From a bacterium (GTDB taxonomy: Bacteria > Bdellovibrionota_C > UBA2361 > CALJRW01), in contig JANNBC010000024.1 in NCBI GenBank assembly GCA_031385045.1, forward strand, positions 64,001 to 128,000: a stretch of 64,000 nt of DNA, in the 5' to 3' direction. The notes under the pieces were generated by a model. It had not been told where the DNA came from. It saw only the letters and a list, made by a program, of their open reading frames with translations, and searched no databases. Positions 505-13,191 of the stretch are shown in pieces. How positions within the stretch are numbered: the stretch's first letter is position 1; each line of letters begins with the position of its first letter. The position numbers and the translations under genes were made by a program.

Positions 505-795
505 ATGAGAGATAAGATAATTGAAGAGTTAAAAAAAATTGAAGATCCCGATGTTTTTTTGGATATTTGGTTCTTGGGACTAATCTACGAGATTGAGTAT
601 GATGAAAAAGAACAGTCGGCTAAGATTACGATGACTTTTACTACTCCGCTTTGCCCATCGGGGCCTGATTTGGTGCAGCAAGTAAATGATCGCTTATTGG
701 ATTTAGATGGGATTTCCCAAGTGGAAGTGATTGTTACTTTTGATCCAGCTTGGCAGGCTAATGAAGAAGTTAAAGCGCTTTTGGGGTTAATTTAA
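505..795 (+). CDS. DUF59/SufT-like metal-sulfur cluster assembly factor
   Basis: DP...DI..LGLIY, MTFTTPLCP, FDPAW motifs. Confidence 0.85.
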   Translation: MRDKIIEELKKIEDPDVFLDIWFLGLIYEIEYDEKEQSAKITMTFTTPLCPSGPDLVQQVNDRLLDLDGISQVEVIVTFDPAWQANEEVKALLGLI

Positions 796-964
796 AGTCT
801 CCCTGTTTTTTATTCGCTTCGCGAATAAGTTTTTGATACTTGGGACATTGATTTCATGGGCAATCCGCTGTCGCCAGACGATATTGGGAATCTGGGAGAT
901 TTTGTGGGGCTTTGGCGTGATAAAGTCTCCCTGTTTTTTATTCGCTTCGCGAATAAGTTTTTGA
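793..964. repeat. Perfect 44-bp direct repeat (793-836, 921-964) with internal palindrome TTATTCGC-TTC-GCGAATAA; 84-bp spacer
   Basis: Both copies read taaagtctccctgttttttattcgcttcgcgaataagtttttga. Confidence 0.95.
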
Positions 965-1004: not shown

Positions 1005-1131
1005 TGACTGTATCAAGAGGGTGTGTTTCTGCATTGCACGTCCAGCAACCTTTATAATTTAAAGGTGCTCGCAGTAAGTCCTTCGTTGCTAAAAAGTTTC
1101 GGCAATTGGAGTTAGGATATTGATACGGTCA
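1005..1131 (+). promoter_or_regulatory. SAM-I-family riboswitch aptamer (variant)
   Basis: P1 tgactgtatca/tgatacggtca; conserved ATCAAGAG, CCAGCAACC and AAGGTGCT blocks; ctgc/gcag pseudoknot; upstream of a MetX-like gene. Confidence 0.8.
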
Positions 1132-1254
1132 TCACGACAAAAATTAGGATCAAGCTCACACTTCTCCTAAATAATTCGTATACCGGAAAACAATATATTA
1201 CTCATTAAAGTAAGGCTTTAAAGCTTGATACAGGTATTTTGTTTTTATACTTGT

Positions 1255-2508
1255 ATGTCTGCCTCATCTGCCGCACCTAAGCTATTTGAACCAATAACGC
1301 CGAGAGCAACTTCTGGGATTGGGCTTGCTGTTTTTAATCCAAAAGATTCACTTCTTACCTCTGGACGCGAGCAATCGTTTGTTGACGATCAGCTAGTTTT
1401 AAGATGTGGTGAGACTGTAGCAGCAGAGCTTAGTTATCGACTTTTTCATAATAACCAAGGCAATCCTTGGGAAAAGCCAATTGTCATTGTGCACAAAGCT
1501 TTGACTGGAAGTACTAATGCCTTTACTGAGGGATCTGCTTCGCAAGGGGATGGCTGGGGTAATTTCATGAAAGATTTACCTAAATTTAATTTAGATAAAT
1601 ATACAATTTTAGTTGTTGAACCTCTGGGTGGTAATTCTCAAGGATTAAGTCCTCAACACAATTGTTCTGGGCGTGATTTTTTCATGAATCATGGAGAGAT
1701 TGCCCTTTCTAGTTATGACACAGTTACGCTTTTAACTAAATTGCTTAAGACGGAAGGTGTTGATGAGGTTGATAATATTACCTGTTTTTCAATGGGTGGT
1801 ATCACATTGCCAGCTTGGCTCACACAGACTGAAATTAAAATCAGAGAAATTCATAATCATTTTACAAATTACCAGATCAATGATGTTACCAGAGAGTATT
1901 GGCAGATCCAATTAGATCTTTTGGCTCGGCCTGGAGTAACTCCTGATTTTACTCAAATTGCTTCAGGCTTAGAGAAAAATCTGGATGTGGATTGTACTTG
2001 TATTGAGAATAGTACTTTTAATGCCTGTATCTATTATCTTAAAGGTAAGATTGAACAATTAGAAAAGGTACATCAGACTGAGGATTATGACGATTATTTG
2101 AATGAAGCATTAAAAGTTGTCCGTGCCGTTTCCTTTCTTAGATTTCAGACCCCTGAAAACTATGATGTTCGAACGATGGGTAGTTCTATAGATTTTTTAA
2201 TGAATCAAGCCGAAGCTTTTCCTGCTCGGATGGATCCTTACAGTTATGTTTCTTTACTAAAGCAAATGTTAGATAACTCATTTCCTTCTCCTGAGGAACT
2301 TAAGCTAGCTAAAGATCCAGATACAAAAATTACTTACATCTTACCAGAATATGAAATGATCTTTCCAGATCCCTACGCCTGTCCAGAGACCAAGTTGGCC
2401 GATAAGCTTCATGTAATTCTTCGAAGTCAGACTGAGGATTGGGGGCATGACTTTTTCTTATCAGACTTATATTCTCAGGTTTTTCGTGCTATGACTGGGT
2501 CTAGGTAA
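1255..2508 (+). CDS. Divergent homoserine O-acyltransferase (MetX)-like alpha/beta hydrolase
   Basis: HKALTG (cf. HALTG), GDGW, FSMGG nucleophile elbow, WGHDFFL (cf. GHDAFL); ATG 1255 preferred over TTG 1225. Confidence 0.65.
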   Translation: MSASSAAPKLFEPITPRATSGIGLAVFNPKDSLLTSGREQSFVDDQLVLRCGETVAAELSYRLFHNNQGNPWEKPIVIVHKALTGSTNAFTEGSASQGDGWGNFMKDLPKFNLDKYTILVVEPLGGNSQGLSPQHNCSGRDFFMNHGEIALSSYDTVTLLTKLLKTEGVDEVDNITCFSMGGITLPAWLTQTEIKIREIHNHFTNYQINDVTREYWQIQLDLLARPGVTPDFTQIASGLEKNLDVDCTCIENSTFNACIYYLKGKIEQLEKVHQTEDYDDYLNEALKVVRAVSFLRFQTPENYDVRTMGSSIDFLMNQAEAFPARMDPYSYVSLLKQMLDNSFPSPEELKLAKDPDTKITYILPEYEMIFPDPYACPETKLADKLHVILRSQTEDWGHDFFLSDLYSQVFRAMTGSR

Positions 2509-2567
2509 TATTCGATCTGTTACTTTTGTGATCTTTCATGAATCGAGTTATGCTATTATAATCATCG

Positions 2568-2757
2568 CTTTTCATTTTTGATAAAAAATGAAAAGAAAGG
2601 TGAGCGAGCAAAAACCTGTCAAAGACAGGTTTTGCCGTAGAAAACAACACCAAACCCTATGCAAATCAGCGGTGAGTATTGGTTTTGTCTTCTACGGTGT
2701 AACTTGGCTAACGCCAAGATTGCGTTTGCCCTCCGCAAATTTCATCTGCGGAGGGTT
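2568..2757. other. Cluster of five adjacent hairpins (structured RNA or MITE/REP-like element); the last is terminator-like
   Basis: Stems at 2568-2595, 2611-2633, 2634-2698, 2703-2718 and 2729-2755. Confidence 0.7.
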
Positions 2758-2818
2758 TAAATAGCCAAAATAATCCATCCGCTAGTCTATGTACTTAACT
2801 ATTTATAAATAATCACAA

Positions 2819-3472
2819 TTGGATACCTCCCTAACTTTTTTAGCAATTCTGGAAAAAGCTTTAATTTTTATTCCGCCACTTTTAGTTGCTATGGTGCTTC
2901 ATGAAATAGCCCACGCCTATGTTGCTTATCGCCTGGGAGATCCTACAGCTAAAAACTTAAATCGGCTTAATCTTAATCCGCTAGTTCACATTGATCCAAT
3001 TTGGACTGTTTTGGTTCCGGGATTATTAATTTTTAGTGGTTCACCAATTGTTTTTGGATCCGCTAAGCCGGTACCAGTTGATCCAAGATATTTTAAAGAT
3101 CCGCGAAGAGGAATGATGTGGGTTGCTATTGCAGGACCAATAATTAATTTTATAATTGCTGGAATATCCTTTATCCTTTTTAAACTATTAATAATTTTTG
3201 TTTCACAAGAATTCTATTTTGCAGAATTGTTTTATTCCTGGTTAGCATACAGTGTCCTAATGAACTTAGTACTTGGACTATTTAATTTATTACCAATTCC
3301 ACCGTTAGATGGGGGCAGGATTATGGTGGGGATTTTACCACTGAAATTAGCGATTAAATATTCTCGAATTGAGCGATTTGGATTTATAATTGTTATCGCC
3401 ATGATTTATTTCAAGGTACCTCAGCTTTACTTAGCTCCAATACTTGATTGGGTACTCGGGCAATTGCATTGA
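2819..3472 (+). CDS. Site-2 protease (peptidase M50) family
   Basis: HEIAH, GDPTAK, AGP, NLLPIPPLDGG. Confidence 0.92.
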   Translation: MDTSLTFLAILEKALIFIPPLLVAMVLHEIAHAYVAYRLGDPTAKNLNRLNLNPLVHIDPIWTVLVPGLLIFSGSPIVFGSAKPVPVDPRYFKDPRRGMMWVAIAGPIINFIIAGISFILFKLLIIFVSQEFYFAELFYSWLAYSVLMNLVLGLFNLLPIPPLDGGRIMVGILPLKLAIKYSRIERFGFIIVIAMIYFKVPQLYLAPILDWVLGQLH

Positions 3473-3572
3473 AATCGCTTAAATTCGAATATTTTTTAGC
3501 ATATCCCGTCTGATTATTAGTGTTTTTAAGTAAAACTAATGTTTTTACAGCTTGTCACCGATAGTTTTAATA

Positions 3573-4001
3573 ATGAAGAGATTGTCTAAGCTTTCAGACA
3601 TATTGCAGATTCTGTTTATCGGGTTATTATTACTTACTGCCACAGTTAATTGTTGTCCAAATGAGCACTCACAAGCAGCCAAACAGGCTTCTGGGGAACA
3701 TGATTGTTGTAGAAAAGATAATTCTAAAAATAAAAAACATTCAGACCATCAAAACTGCATAGACTGTCAGCATGGAATTAAAATTGTTGAGTCAGGAAAG
3801 TTAGATTTAGCAAAATTAATCCTCAGTCAAACTAATGTGTCTAACTTTTTATTAGTTAGCTCTGATCTTAATGCCGTAAATTATCATTTCCAGACAGAGC
3901 GTCGGTCTGATAATTTCTCCAATGCTCCCAATCCTCTTTTTGCATCTAAGCTAATTAGCCCACTTGCCCTATCACCAAACGCACCGCCACTCCAAGCTTA
4001 A
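3573..4001 (+). CDS. Secreted Cys/His-rich small protein ending in NAPP (DUF2946-like candidate leader peptide)
   Basis: Hydrophobic N-terminus, CC..H, HDCC, CIDC, C-terminal SPNAPPLQA; ATG 3573 in frame with the track ORF at 3552. Confidence 0.55.
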   Translation: MKRLSKLSDILQILFIGLLLLTATVNCCPNEHSQAAKQASGEHDCCRKDNSKNKKHSDHQNCIDCQHGIKIVESGKLDLAKLILSQTNVSNFLLVSSDLNAVNYHFQTERRSDNFSNAPNPLFASKLISPLALSPNAPPLQA

Positions 4002-10078: not shown

Positions 10079-11320
10079 CTAACGGCTACCAGCAATCCAG
10101 CCAGTTGTCCAAGCAGACTGAAAGTTAAATCCTCCTGTTATTCCGTCTATATCTAGAACCTCTCCGGAGAAAAAGAGACCAGGCACTATTTTGCTCTGCA
10201 TCGTTGTAAAATCAACTTCTTTTAAGGACACCCCACCACAGGTAACGAATTCATCTTTAAATTTACCTTTGCCTGCTACAGCATATGTTGCTTGGGTAAT
10301 TTCACTAGCAATTAATTGCAGTTGTTTTTTAGAAAACTCTGACCAAATTTGTTTTTCTTTAGTTTCAATTTGTAGAAGAATCTTAGCCCAATATCTTTTG
10401 GGAATATTAAGGAAGGAGTCTCCGCTTGCAATAGCTTTGGGGTGATGCTCTTTATGTAAGGTTAATAGCCCTAAGACGGACTCCCAGTTTTCTTTTGGTA
10501 AAAAATTAATTTTTAATGTTGCTATGTAGCCGCTAGCAAAAAGATCTTTTGCAGCCAATGCTGAAAGTTTAATTGTTGCTGGCCCACTAAGTCCCCAATG
10601 GGTAATTAAAACTGGACCCTGCTGTTTAAACTTATTACCATTAGGAGCAATAAGTTCTAATTGAATATCTGTAAAACTGACACCAGCTAATTCCGCTAGT
10701 CGAGAATCATTAATCTCAAAACTAAATAGTGAGGGTACTAGCGCTGTTATTGTATGTCCAAGAGATCTTGCGAGTTCTAGGCTACTCTTTGTGCCTCCTG
10801 TTGTTAGAATTACTTGATCAAAGATTGCTACTGCTGATTCTTCTTCCGCTCCATTAAAATGGAGCTGGAATTGTTGATTAGCAGCAAGTTTAATTTGGGA
10901 AACTTTCTGCTTCAGAATTACTTTAATGCCTAAATCTTTTGCTTTATTGATTAAGCAATTAGCGATAGTTGAAGATTCATTAGTAATTGGAAACATTCGC
11001 TTATCAGGTTCAGTTTTTAGTTCCACGCCATTAGATTTAAACCAAGCAATGGTGTCTAAAACTGCAAACCTAGTAAATGCTCCTCTTAATTCTTTATGAC
11101 CTCGAGGGTAATTTTTAACTAATTCGGATATTTCTGGGGTATTATTTGTTACATTACAACGTCCACCCCCAGAAATTAAAACCTTGGCCAAGAGTTTATT
11201 TGTGGCTTCATAAATGCTAACTTCAGCGTTCGAATCATGGTGAGCCGCACTGATTGCACTAAAGAATCCGGCAGCCCCACCACCGATAACCGCTATTTTT
11301 ATTTGTTTGGAAGTTGTCAT
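10079..11320 (-). CDS. HI0933/BaiN-family flavoprotein
   Basis: GGGAAG, SGGGRCNVTN, VTCGGV, GGFNFQSAW. Confidence 0.92.
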   Translation of the reverse strand: MTTSKQIKIAVIGGGAAGFFSAISAAHHDSNAEVSIYEATNKLLAKVLISGGGRCNVTNNTPEISELVKNYPRGHKELRGAFTRFAVLDTIAWFKSNGVELKTEPDKRMFPITNESSTIANCLINKAKDLGIKVILKQKVSQIKLAANQQFQLHFNGAEEESAVAIFDQVILTTGGTKSSLELARSLGHTITALVPSLFSFEINDSRLAELAGVSFTDIQLELIAPNGNKFKQQGPVLITHWGLSGPATIKLSALAAKDLFASGYIATLKINFLPKENWESVLGLLTLHKEHHPKAIASGDSFLNIPKRYWAKILLQIETKEKQIWSEFSKKQLQLIASEITQATYAVAGKGKFKDEFVTCGGVSLKEVDFTTMQSKIVPGLFFSGEVLDIDGITGGFNFQSAWTTGWIAGSR

Positions 11321-11397
11321 ATTTTGCCCCAGTCTTAGTTCTTAATTACTAAGTCAGTTAACCAATAATAGACCATCCTGTCGTTTTTTGAAATTCT

Positions 11398-13191
11398 ATG
11401 AGTACCTTAATTAGCCTTGATTCTGTTTCCCATCAAATTGGTAATAAGCAGTTATTCTCTGATTTAAAATTAGCTATTAGTGATGATTCCCGAATTGGGA
11501 TTATTGGACCAAATGGTTCTGGTAAATCAACCCTAATGAAAATTATTGCCGAAGAAATTGTTCCTGATAGTGGTCGGGTAGTTTGTGGTCGTAGTGTTCA
11601 GGTAGCATATGTACCCCAGATGGATAGCTTTAATCCAGCATTAACAGCCCAAGAAGTAATGATTAAGGAGTTAAGTAATAACTTTACTGATCTAGAAGCT
11701 AATACTCGTGCTGGTAAATTTCTTAGCAAAGTTGGTTTTGAAGACTTAACTCAGAAAGTAGGAGATTTATCAGGAGGCTGGCGTAAGCGGTTGTCATTAG
11801 CAGTTGCTTTAGCGCGTGAGCCAGAAGTTTTGCTATTAGATGAACCTACTAATCATTTAGACTTAGCCGGATTGCTGTGGTTAGAGAACCTTTTAAATAA
11901 TGCCAACTTTGCTTGGGCTTTAATTTCTCACGATCGCTATTTTCTAGAAAGAACCGTTAAAGAAGTAATCGAGGTTGCTCCTTGTTATAAAAATGGAATT
12001 ATTAAATTGGGTGGTTCATATCAAACCTTTTTAGAAAAGAGGGATGAGTTTTTAGATCAAGAAGCAAAAGGCATTGCCTCACTTGCTAATAAGGTTCGTA
12101 ATGAACAAGAGTGGGCCTCTCGAGCGCCGAAAGCTCGGGGAACTAAAGCAAATTATCGAGTGAAAGAAGCCGATCGCCTAGATTCTGAATTGCAAGAACG
12201 TCGTTCGCGAGTTACTGGCGAGGCGACAAAAGTTAGCTTCACTGCTAGTCAGCGCCAAACTAAAGAATTAGCCGAATTTATTAATGTGACTTTTGGTTTT
12301 GATAATTTACCAATTGTTACACAAGAAAATTTTATTATTAATAGTGGTGTTTGTTTGGGCGTTCTGGGAACGAATGGACAGGGGAAATCAACATTACTAA
12401 AGTTGATTGGAGGTGCGTTAGAGCCTCAGGCCGGAAAGGTTAAACGAGCTGGTCATTTAAAAGTAGTTTATTTTGATCAATTGCGTGGAGCATTAAGCTC
12501 TGCCTCAACTTTGCGTCAGGCGCTAGCAGATGGTTATGATCAAGTGGTCTATCAATCTAGATCTTTGCATATTATTAGTTGGGGTAAAAAATTTGGTTTT
12601 GATCCCGCAGATCTTGATAAGCCAATCAAAAACCTTTCAGGGGGAGAGCAGGCTAGATTATTATTATCGATCTTAGTAAGACAGGAAGCCGATTTATTAA
12701 TTTTAGATGAACCTACTAATGATTTAGATCTTCCAATGTTAGAAATGTTAGAAGGCATGCTAGTTGATTTTCCAGGAGCAGTGATTCTAGTTACACATGA
12801 TCGCTACATGTTAGAAAAGGTCTGTACGAATTTCCTTGGGTTTAATCAGGAACAGAAGTTATTAACTTATGCTTCATATGCTCAGTGGCAAGAGAGTCGA
12901 GCTAGAGTTCAACATGCTAAAGAATCAAGAGGTTCAGGGAGTATTCCATCTATCCCAGTTGCTAAGAAAATGTCCTCAGAGGAAATACGTGAATATGGAC
13001 AGATGGAGAAAAAAATTATGAAGGCTGAGCAAGAATTAGCTTTAATTGAAGATCGAGCAGTGAAGGCGGCAACAGCTAATGATCATCATTTAATGGTGCA
13101 AGTCGCTAATGAGCTCACAGTCGCTCAAGAGAAGGTTGAAGGTTTGTATCGTCGTTGGGATGAGTTAGAAAATTTAAGTGGTAAACTTTAA
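11398..13191 (+). CDS. uup: ABC-F family ATPase (Uup-like)
   Basis: Two ABC cassettes (GPNGSGKS, GTNGQGKS, LSGG, DEPTN), no TM segments, C-terminal coiled coil. Confidence 0.85.
   Translation: MSTLISLDSVSHQIGNKQLFSDLKLAISDDSRIGIIGPNGSGKSTLMKIIAEEIVPDSGRVVCGRSVQVAYVPQMDSFNPALTAQEVMIKELSNNFTDLEANTRAGKFLSKVGFEDLTQKVGDLSGGWRKRLSLAVALAREPEVLLLDEPTNHLDLAGLLWLENLLNNANFAWALISHDRYFLERTVKEVIEVAPCYKNGIIKLGGSYQTFLEKRDEFLDQEAKGIASLANKVRNEQEWASRAPKARGTKANYRVKEADRLDSELQERRSRVTGEATKVSFTASQRQTKELAEFINVTFGFDNLPIVTQENFIINSGVCLGVLGTNGQGKSTLLKLIGGALEPQAGKVKRAGHLKVVYFDQLRGALSSASTLRQALADGYDQVVYQSRSLHIISWGKKFGFDPADLDKPIKNLSGGEQARLLLSILVRQEADLLILDEPTNDLDLPMLEMLEGMLVDFPGAVILVTHDRYMLEKVCTNFLGFNQEQKLLTYASYAQWQESRARVQHAKESRGSGSIPSIPVAKKMSSEEIREYGQMEKKIMKAEQELALIEDRAVKAATANDHHLMVQVANELTVAQEKVEGLYRRWDELENLSGKL

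Follow-up and report, generated by a model that had tools for sequence, protein, structure and literature searches.

The three families of the SAM riboswitch clan share one common pocket and differ by the peripheral modules that brace it. The window analyzed here, a stretch of 64,000 nucleotides of bacterial DNA, contains a MetX-like gene with a 250-nt leader, the first part of which (1005..1131; all features of the window discussed below are on its forward strand) had been taken in a preliminary description for a variant SAM-I-type riboswitch. We asked which of the known architectures this RNA has and how it could control the gene. Sequence comparison and folding models together put a little past even the reading that we favor, namely a SAM-I/IV-type riboswitch with a likely additional pseudoknot, PK-1, predicted to repress translation of the metX-like gene in a SAM-dependent manner. 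Contigs from a second study (two runs) have identical letters over 900-1400, with no variants, so the locus is not an assembly artefact.

The gene begins with an AUG codon at 1255 and encodes a highly divergent protein of 417 amino acids (1255..2508). As had been proposed, this protein is MetX-like: MetX models match it at E 5e-10, with scores of 38.8 and 37.4 bits versus NCBIfam cut-offs of 331 and 500 bits, and Pfam gave no match. Ser179 and His398 are invariant in all four aligned proteins, and the window protein and its orthologue in the same genus have Glu where two relatives have Asp; we take these to be the motif positions of the Ser-Asp-His triad of MetX homoserine O-acyltransferases. 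Searching solved structures with the protein gave nothing significant, the best match (E 0.15) being a homoserine O-acetyltransferase, and a word-index search returned two proteins in all. The protein is the sole MetX-family match in its own genome (95% complete), where MetA had no match, and a role in methionine synthesis is likely. One relative (27% identity) forms part of a fusion with a PLP sulfur enzyme, and its gene follows a canonical SAM-I riboswitch that scores 84 bits. Locus L005 has a canonical SAM-I riboswitch at 1041-1173 and, at 1333-3864, a MetX-like domain fused to a PLP enzyme best matched by a BesB-like model. The window RNA likewise lies 5' of a gene of the sulfur/methionine type, the location expected for members of SAM clan CL00012, with a MetX-like match that is far below the cut-off.

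The region 1000-1135 folds into a four-way junction of -42.6 kcal/mol (z -3.9), and none of 200 shuffled sequences folded as well. P1, J1/2, P2, P3, P4 and the CTGC and GCAG blocks are all where the preliminary description had placed them. The 5' strand of P1 has a conserved core at 1009..1014 and faces a 3' core at 1122..1127; it leads into J1/2 (AAGA, 1015..1018), and the core block AUCAAGAG occupies 1012-1019. P2 (1019..1043) consists of eight contiguous pairs (1019-1026:1036-1043) and a 9-nt loop, with no internal loop; it is as short and as free of a kink-turn as had been reported. P3 (1044..1069) contains the internal loop of the SAM pocket, with A1047 and A1048 opposite U1066, and ends in a loop, L3, of 5-6 nt (1055-1060). 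Then come J3/4, which is 8 nt long (1070..1077), and P4 of 41 nt (1078..1118, -7.4 kcal/mol). These assignments were made by alignment to the SAM-I/IV model, by folding and by comparison with a related genome, G001. According to our own mapping, for which SAM-I numbering and sequence were taken from published sources, the pocket bases U7, G11, A45, U57, G58 and U88 are all present, as U1013, G1017, A1047, U1066, G1067 and U1124. By its sequence the RNA is a SAM-clan riboswitch core, and it very probably binds SAM.

Standard models score this RNA as poorly as had been anticipated. The best Rfam match was to SAM-I/IV (RF01725) over 1005-1154, with 34.1 bits (E 0.0017, full model) against a gathering threshold of 41.1 bits, in an alignment that treats about 50 nt as an insertion. 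The SAM-I model (RF00162) gave 13.8 bits versus a cut-off of 44.4 and the SAM-IV model (RF00634) no match, so that the comparison with the three Rfam models, which had been suggested as a check of novelty, produced no high-scoring ordinary match. When the whole genome was scanned with the SAM-I/IV model, this locus was not among the matches, and the copy in G001 (35.1 bits) is also below 41.1. What is unusual is not what had been thought so. The kink-free P2 and the extended P4 had been offered as new, and we discarded both as signs of novelty: in the accessible parts of two papers (PMC2864571; PMC6890682), SAM-I/IV is already defined by its P4 and by a P2 that has no internal loop, and in the 2010 alignment (PMC2864571), read by eye, the P4 arms can be about 40 nt long. 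The element also does not end at 1131: a candidate P5 of the SAM-I/IV type and a CAA tail, both overlooked in the preliminary description, run to about 1146-1154, and conserved putative switch elements to 1257.

Comparison with G001, the only further genome of the genus, delimits the element. The downstream protein matched in 4 of 61 genomes searched, its own included, and in G001 the RNA precedes the orthologue (58% protein identity). The two genomes are identical at 113/121 positions of the aptamer, 79/80 of 1008-1087, 57/59 of 1128-1186 and 30/34 of 1224-1257; elsewhere, identity is 45/68 upstream, 18/37 in 1187-1223, a region in which G001 has a 40-nt insertion, and 21/33 at the start of the coding region. 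A U.G pair of P2 is U-A in G001, the pair G1088-C1103 of P4 is A-U (one double change), and the strands of PK-1 are invariant. P1 extends by complementarity to 1005-1016/1120-1131 in the window, reaching 1008 and 1015 in both genomes and 1005 only here. The arms of the 11-bp P1 described earlier are thus present, but its three outer pairs are all broken in G001, where eight pairs are kept; we rejected the 11-bp helix as a conserved feature and regard P1 as conserved over 6-8 bp.

The truly unusual part is the candidate pseudoknot between the P2 loop and J3/4. Its 5' strand, CUGC (1029-1032), starts 10 nt past the first G of P2 and faces GCAG (1071-1074), which is followed by UAA; the strands seen earlier are present, and they would form four Watson-Crick pairs with an A.C mismatch. 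The covariation check suggested with the preliminary description gave a divided answer, as PK-1 is invariant in the window-type copies (n=2) and compensatory changes occur only in another group of RNAs, which we call the Planctomycetota-type subgroup. A pattern scan over 16 of 64 parts of a genome collection yielded at least 120 loci, among them many long-P2 RNAs from Planctomycetota in which a strand of the P2 loop is complementary to the five bases past P3 at offset 10. The offset, counted in nucleotides past the first G of P2 and matching that of the window, was picked on this first set. A second draw, from 401 Planctomycetota genomes with J3/4 unconstrained, gave 18 matches, of which one repeated locus L036 and 15 passed the filter. 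Nine of the 10 long-linker RNAs of this held-out draw pair at 5/5 positions at offset 10, with G.U counted; of these nine, five have nearly the same sequence and two depend mostly on G.U. When all loci were pooled, after same-locus repeats, L020/L159 and L143 had been left out, 164 matches resulted; 39 were removed because of a weak P2, a missing P1 strand or duplication, which left 125 distinct riboswitch-like records. From these, 33 RNAs were sorted into the subgroup by an 8-nt linker between P3 and P4, blind to the pseudoknot. Members in the alignment (A2) include L028, L032, L034, L036, L048, L049, L066, L071, L073, L074 and L077, as well as L098, L111, L132, L163-L165 and L170-L175.

At least 4 of 5 positions pair at offset 10 in 22/33 subgroup RNAs, compared with 1, 1, 1, 3 and 3 at control offsets 7, 8, 9, 12 and 13 and 12 at offset 11. 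RNAs of the other linker class pair at offset 10 in 7/91 cases; this count includes the RNAs of the window and of G001, which the parser had assigned to that class and which were otherwise treated separately. Within the 33-row alignment, from which the window RNA was excluded, 84% of the cells are paired, versus 21-65% in slid controls, and three of the five PK-1 pairs show changes in both strands (G-C/A-U, C-G/U-A and U-A/C-G). For five covariation measures the observed value was reached by 0, 188, 1, 400 and 4 of 500 shuffles, the second and fourth measures thus not exceeding the shuffles; the 33 RNAs are closely related, with a tree too weakly resolved for counting independent changes, and such kinship can inflate these measures. 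Allowing offset 10 or 11, 30 of 42 Planctomycetota records pair at four or more positions (22 of them at 5/5) and 12 fail, and 15 of 80 records from elsewhere pair at four or more, 3 of them at 5/5. Several of the Planctomycetota RNAs that pass rely largely on G.U pairs, and L061 and L107 show one-sided change. These two loci, together with L030, L072 and L103, are relatives of the subgroup that have kept the J3/4 strand and lost the complementary loop; they are possible intermediates of PK-1 loss.

The subgroup differs from ordinary members of the family in a second respect. A signal for PK-2, the pairing of L3 with the tail, is present in ordinary members (4.40 versus a null of 3.03, reached in 0/1000 trials; 81 parsed) and absent from the subgroup (3.00 versus 2.87, 201/1000; 30 parsed), which does have P5 and CAA. 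None of the 33 RNAs reaches the Rfam cut-off, and 15 of the 20 loci in one scored set had clan matches of 28-40 bits. Cys/Met PLP enzymes are encoded downstream in all five cases tested. A subgroup that falls below the Rfam cut-offs, with a PK-1 suggested by its alignment and no PK-2 signal, is the best-supported new result of this work and merits a family model of its own.

The window RNA shares with this subgroup the 8-nt linker, a 3-nt J4/1 and offset 10, and the pairing letters differ. Among ordinary members, 0/89 reach four of five Watson-Crick pairs at either of the offsets 10 and 11; 2.8% of random 5-mers match as well as the PK-1 strands of the window, a chance of about 3% over the two offsets. 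The likeness is geometric: a model of the subgroup missed the window RNA with default filters and gave it 20.1 bits with filters off, and the same model scored ordinary SAM-I/IV members at 33-43 bits. A bulged base in P2 of the subgroup RNAs has no counterpart in the window, which aligns there with a gap; as a result, the registers counted from the top of the P2 stem differ by 1-2 nt. Because the window RNA is not close to the subgroup in sequence, we call its PK-1 likely only. The pseudoknot probably forms, by analogy with the geometry of the subgroup, and the resemblance is possibly one of convergence. We do not class the RNA as a plain member of SAM-I/IV because of its sub-threshold score and this probable PK-1.

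The main alternative would be a SAM-I/IV riboswitch of the ordinary kind, rich in AU and with a P4 of unusual length, in which the match of P2 loop and J3/4 is due to chance and the 50-nt insertion lowers the score. The unkinked P2, P4, P5 and CAA all fit that family, and a model built from the window RNA and run on 100 loci gave its best scores to three ordinary members (L065, L054 and L115) and found none of the subgroup; L115 shares the letters of L3 and tail and passes the Rfam cut-off. The match has a chance of about 3%, and the preliminary description had gone looking for it. An ordinary member would, on the other hand, mostly have a linker of 1-3 nt rather than 8 nt, the length of the subgroup, whose covariation lies at this offset too, and no ordinary member has the four Watson-Crick pairs. 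We consider this explanation unlikely, though it is the strongest of the competitors. The segment from P3 to P1 is 52 nt long in the window and is exceeded in 1 of 121 others, probably a mis-parse.

The region 3' of the aptamer offers candidates for the remaining modules. P5 and the CAA tail (1128..1146) fit the SAM-I/IV model in sequence; the helix has 3 bp, -1.8 kcal/mol and a predicted probability of 0.001 or less. The conservation of this stretch is equally accounted for by pairing of 1126-1137 with a conserved block at 1176..1185 (10 possible pairs), which in the predicted SAM-free state would take up P5 and the 3' end of P1. Within the tail, 1141-1146 is complementary to L3 (1055-1060), a possible PK-2 of six A-U pairs expected by chance at 3-4%. 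Its tail index is 2, versus 6-8 in 45 of 57 ordinary members, and it competes with a hairpin (1144-1149:1165-1170; 1144..1170) that is kept in G001.

Searches for further RNAs of the window type were negative within their scope. None was found in 91 genomes of the order, and the pattern occurred in two of 124 genomes of the phylum, the window genome and G001. The window model added nothing in these 124 genomes apart from one match (E 0.047) that lacks the core, and the subgroup model found no window-type RNA in the phylum; it gave four matches in three other genomes, and those inspected lack the 8-nt linker. Plasmids contained none, and viral contigs had ordinary SAM riboswitches (1/9 and 1/91 loci) and no window-type RNA. 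Of 14 loci from a metagenome scan, 13 were examined and none is of the window type; L144 (925-1015) and L151 (1481-1571) are SAM-I/IV RNAs above the cut-off with an 8-nt linker and three pairs at the PK-1 offset, possibly a third lineage, and the remaining loci are ordinary or show chance pairing. A weak SAM-clan-like RNA with a long P2 (L180:1501-1615, genome G075) scored 25.5 bits with model R1, and two SAM-I/IV riboswitches (L019 and L022) point outward near the ends of one 2.5-kb contig (G082:C41).

How could the aptamer control the gene? As stated in the preliminary description, no intrinsic terminator lies between the two; two lie upstream of the aptamer. The expression platform had been called unclear, a judgment that overlooked a start-codon hairpin and an anti-P1 helix that excludes it. 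The segment 1224..1233 is a perfect 10-nt complement of 1008-1017 and retains 9 pairs in G001, across the 40-nt insertion; from genome counts, a perfect 10-mer is expected 0.0002 times per 250 nt. The segment 1228-1237 pairs with 1247-1256 (1228..1256, -9.2 kcal/mol) and so covers the A and U of the AUG; G001 has 10 pairs here, with a double change from G.U to U.G and a change from U-A to U.G. Both helices use the 1224-1233 region and are mutually exclusive. A TTG at 1225 is in frame in both genomes, but we did not favor it as a start: of the four changes that separate the genomes between TTG and ATG, three change the encoded residue, and those in the stem preserve its pairing; the purine-rich word that precedes it is also missing in G001. 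SAM, bound between P1 and P3 as in other members of the clan, would stabilize P1; 1228-1237 would then be available for the hairpin with 1247-1256, and the AUG would be hidden (OFF). When SAM is absent, two other helices, 1008-1017:1224-1233 and 1126-1137:1176-1185, would form and leave the start region open (ON). PK-1 would brace the four-way junction, replacing the P5/PK-2 module or acting alongside it. In equilibrium nearest-neighbor estimates that leave out pseudoknots, ligand and ribosome, the ten positions to the U of the AUG are unpaired with a probability of 0.00-0.09 when P1 is forced and 0.40-1.00 when anti-P1 is forced.

The genome provides a setting for such control. A Shine-Dalgarno-like word precedes 114 of 1030 long open reading frames, and upstream regions are AU-rich with an enrichment of A at -11; hiding of the start region would be a fitting form of control where Shine-Dalgarno sites are rare. 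The objection to a start-codon switch is that folding favors the OFF state in this genome even without SAM. In the same kind of estimate, an RNA with its 5' end at 998 has a P1 probability of 0.999, 7 kcal/mol over the anti-P1 state, and an AUG hairpin of 1.00; with the 5' end at 1008, P1 falls to 0.01 and the hairpin to 0.84. The extension of P1, found only in this genome, is worth about 6 kcal/mol. For G001 the estimates are balanced (P1 0.05, anti-P1 0.53, hairpin 0.50); a balance is seen only there or when the transcript begins at 1008. Weighing these models, we think that the start-codon switch probably operates.

The boundaries of the transcript bear on these estimates. No sigma-70 consensus promoter occurs in 760-1400; a TTGAAG and TAAAAT pair, 19 nt apart, is conserved. 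A terminator-like hairpin at 937..957, which from its sequence would set the leader apart from the upstream gene, is the second copy (first copy, 809-829) of an exact 44-nt direct repeat with 128-nt spacing and a terminator-like palindrome (window 793-964; own contig C39, about 11240-11420). A diverged copy of this REP-like unit, likewise repeated, is found on another contig. The repeat is missing at the corresponding place in G001, where a 124-codon open reading frame (L004:617-991, minus strand) lies between a SUF-type gene and the riboswitch.

If the aptamer is real and control lies elsewhere, P5/PK-2 or the conserved blocks of 1144-1185 could affect RNA decay or, through pausing or a Rho-dependent stop, transcription; the AUG hairpin would then be a fixed brake. 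The near-identity of 1128-1186 in G001, the high probability of the AUG hairpin without SAM in this genome and the length of the leader would all be accommodated, but not the anti-P1 10-mer, which overlaps the 5' arm of the hairpin exactly and is conserved amid diverged surroundings, and there is no intrinsic terminator; we regard this as improbable. Slightly less probable still is a decaying switch, locked OFF by the three added outer pairs of P1, with a gene that is free of SAM control or does not encode a homoserine acyltransferase: the P1 extension private to this genome, the Glu in place of Asp and a protein far below the family cut-offs are in its favor, but the pocket bases are intact, the RNA shows higher identity than the beginning of the coding region (113/121 versus 21/33) and the gene is the sole MetX match of the genome.

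To our knowledge, PK-1 has been known only together with a bent P2. If a straight-P2 group with PK-1 and without a PK-2 signal is real, the peripheral modules of the clan would be swappable, and such RNAs would give constructs with which the effect of each module on affinity and switching can be tested. The subgroup would also add riboswitches that annotation has overlooked, and the window RNA would be a compact test of start-codon hiding in a bacterium with mostly non-Shine-Dalgarno starts; the ligand and the switch logic are ordinary. The most far-reaching reading is a fourth SAM-clan architecture missed by Rfam, with P4, PK-1, a straight P2 and P5, in which PK-1 replaces PK-2 in Planctomycetota and the window RNA, having P4, PK-1, P5 and PK-2, links SAM-I, SAM-IV and SAM-I/IV and adds a start-codon switch independent of any Shine-Dalgarno site. 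This is a speculative reading, and we would bet against it.

Overall, the window RNA can be compared with four groups. Like SAM-I, it has the AUC/GAU of P1, the AAGAG joint, the GCAACC/GGUGC of P3 and a four-way junction with P4 and a likely pseudoknot between P2 loop and J3/4; unlike SAM-I, it lacks the kink-turn and the A-rich spacer ahead of the pseudoknot strand, its P2 is about 4 nt shorter, it has a P5/CAA-like tail and it scores 13.8 bits. With SAM-IV, which the accessible part of PMC6890682 describes as lacking P4 and having PK-1, PK-2, P5 and a 4-nt turn that splits P2, it shares a candidate P5 and the position of the 3' strand of its likely PK-1 directly after P3; in P2 and P4 it is the opposite, and the model does not match. 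From the subgroup, which it resembles in its 8-nt J3/4, 3-nt J4/1, P2 of 25-29 nt, offset 10 and candidate P5 with CAA, it is set apart by low sequence similarity and by the GC-rich sequence, bulged P2, long P3 extension, short P4 and missing PK-2 signal of those RNAs. SAM-I/IV, of which a structure exists (4L81, as cited in the accessible part of PMC5393176), is described in the available text of PMC6890682 as lacking PK-1. The structure lines of the 2010 alignment mark one pseudoknot, from L3 to the tail, and one row of the 8-nt-linker subgroup sits there unremarked (PMC2864571, as far as accessible); titles and abstract openings of open-licence papers and preprints contained no description of SAM-I/IV with PK-1. 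Compared with ordinary members, the window RNA has an 8-nt J3/4 rather than mostly 1-3 nt, a likely PK-1, a candidate P5 of only 3 bp, a doubtful PK-2 and a score of 34.1 against 41.1 bits. It agrees with them in the pocket blocks, the unsplit P2, P4 between P3 and P1, and a GAU-x-x-G followed by a P5-like sequence and CAA, and the label of a SAM-I/IV variant with PK-1 fits it better than that of a SAM-I variant.
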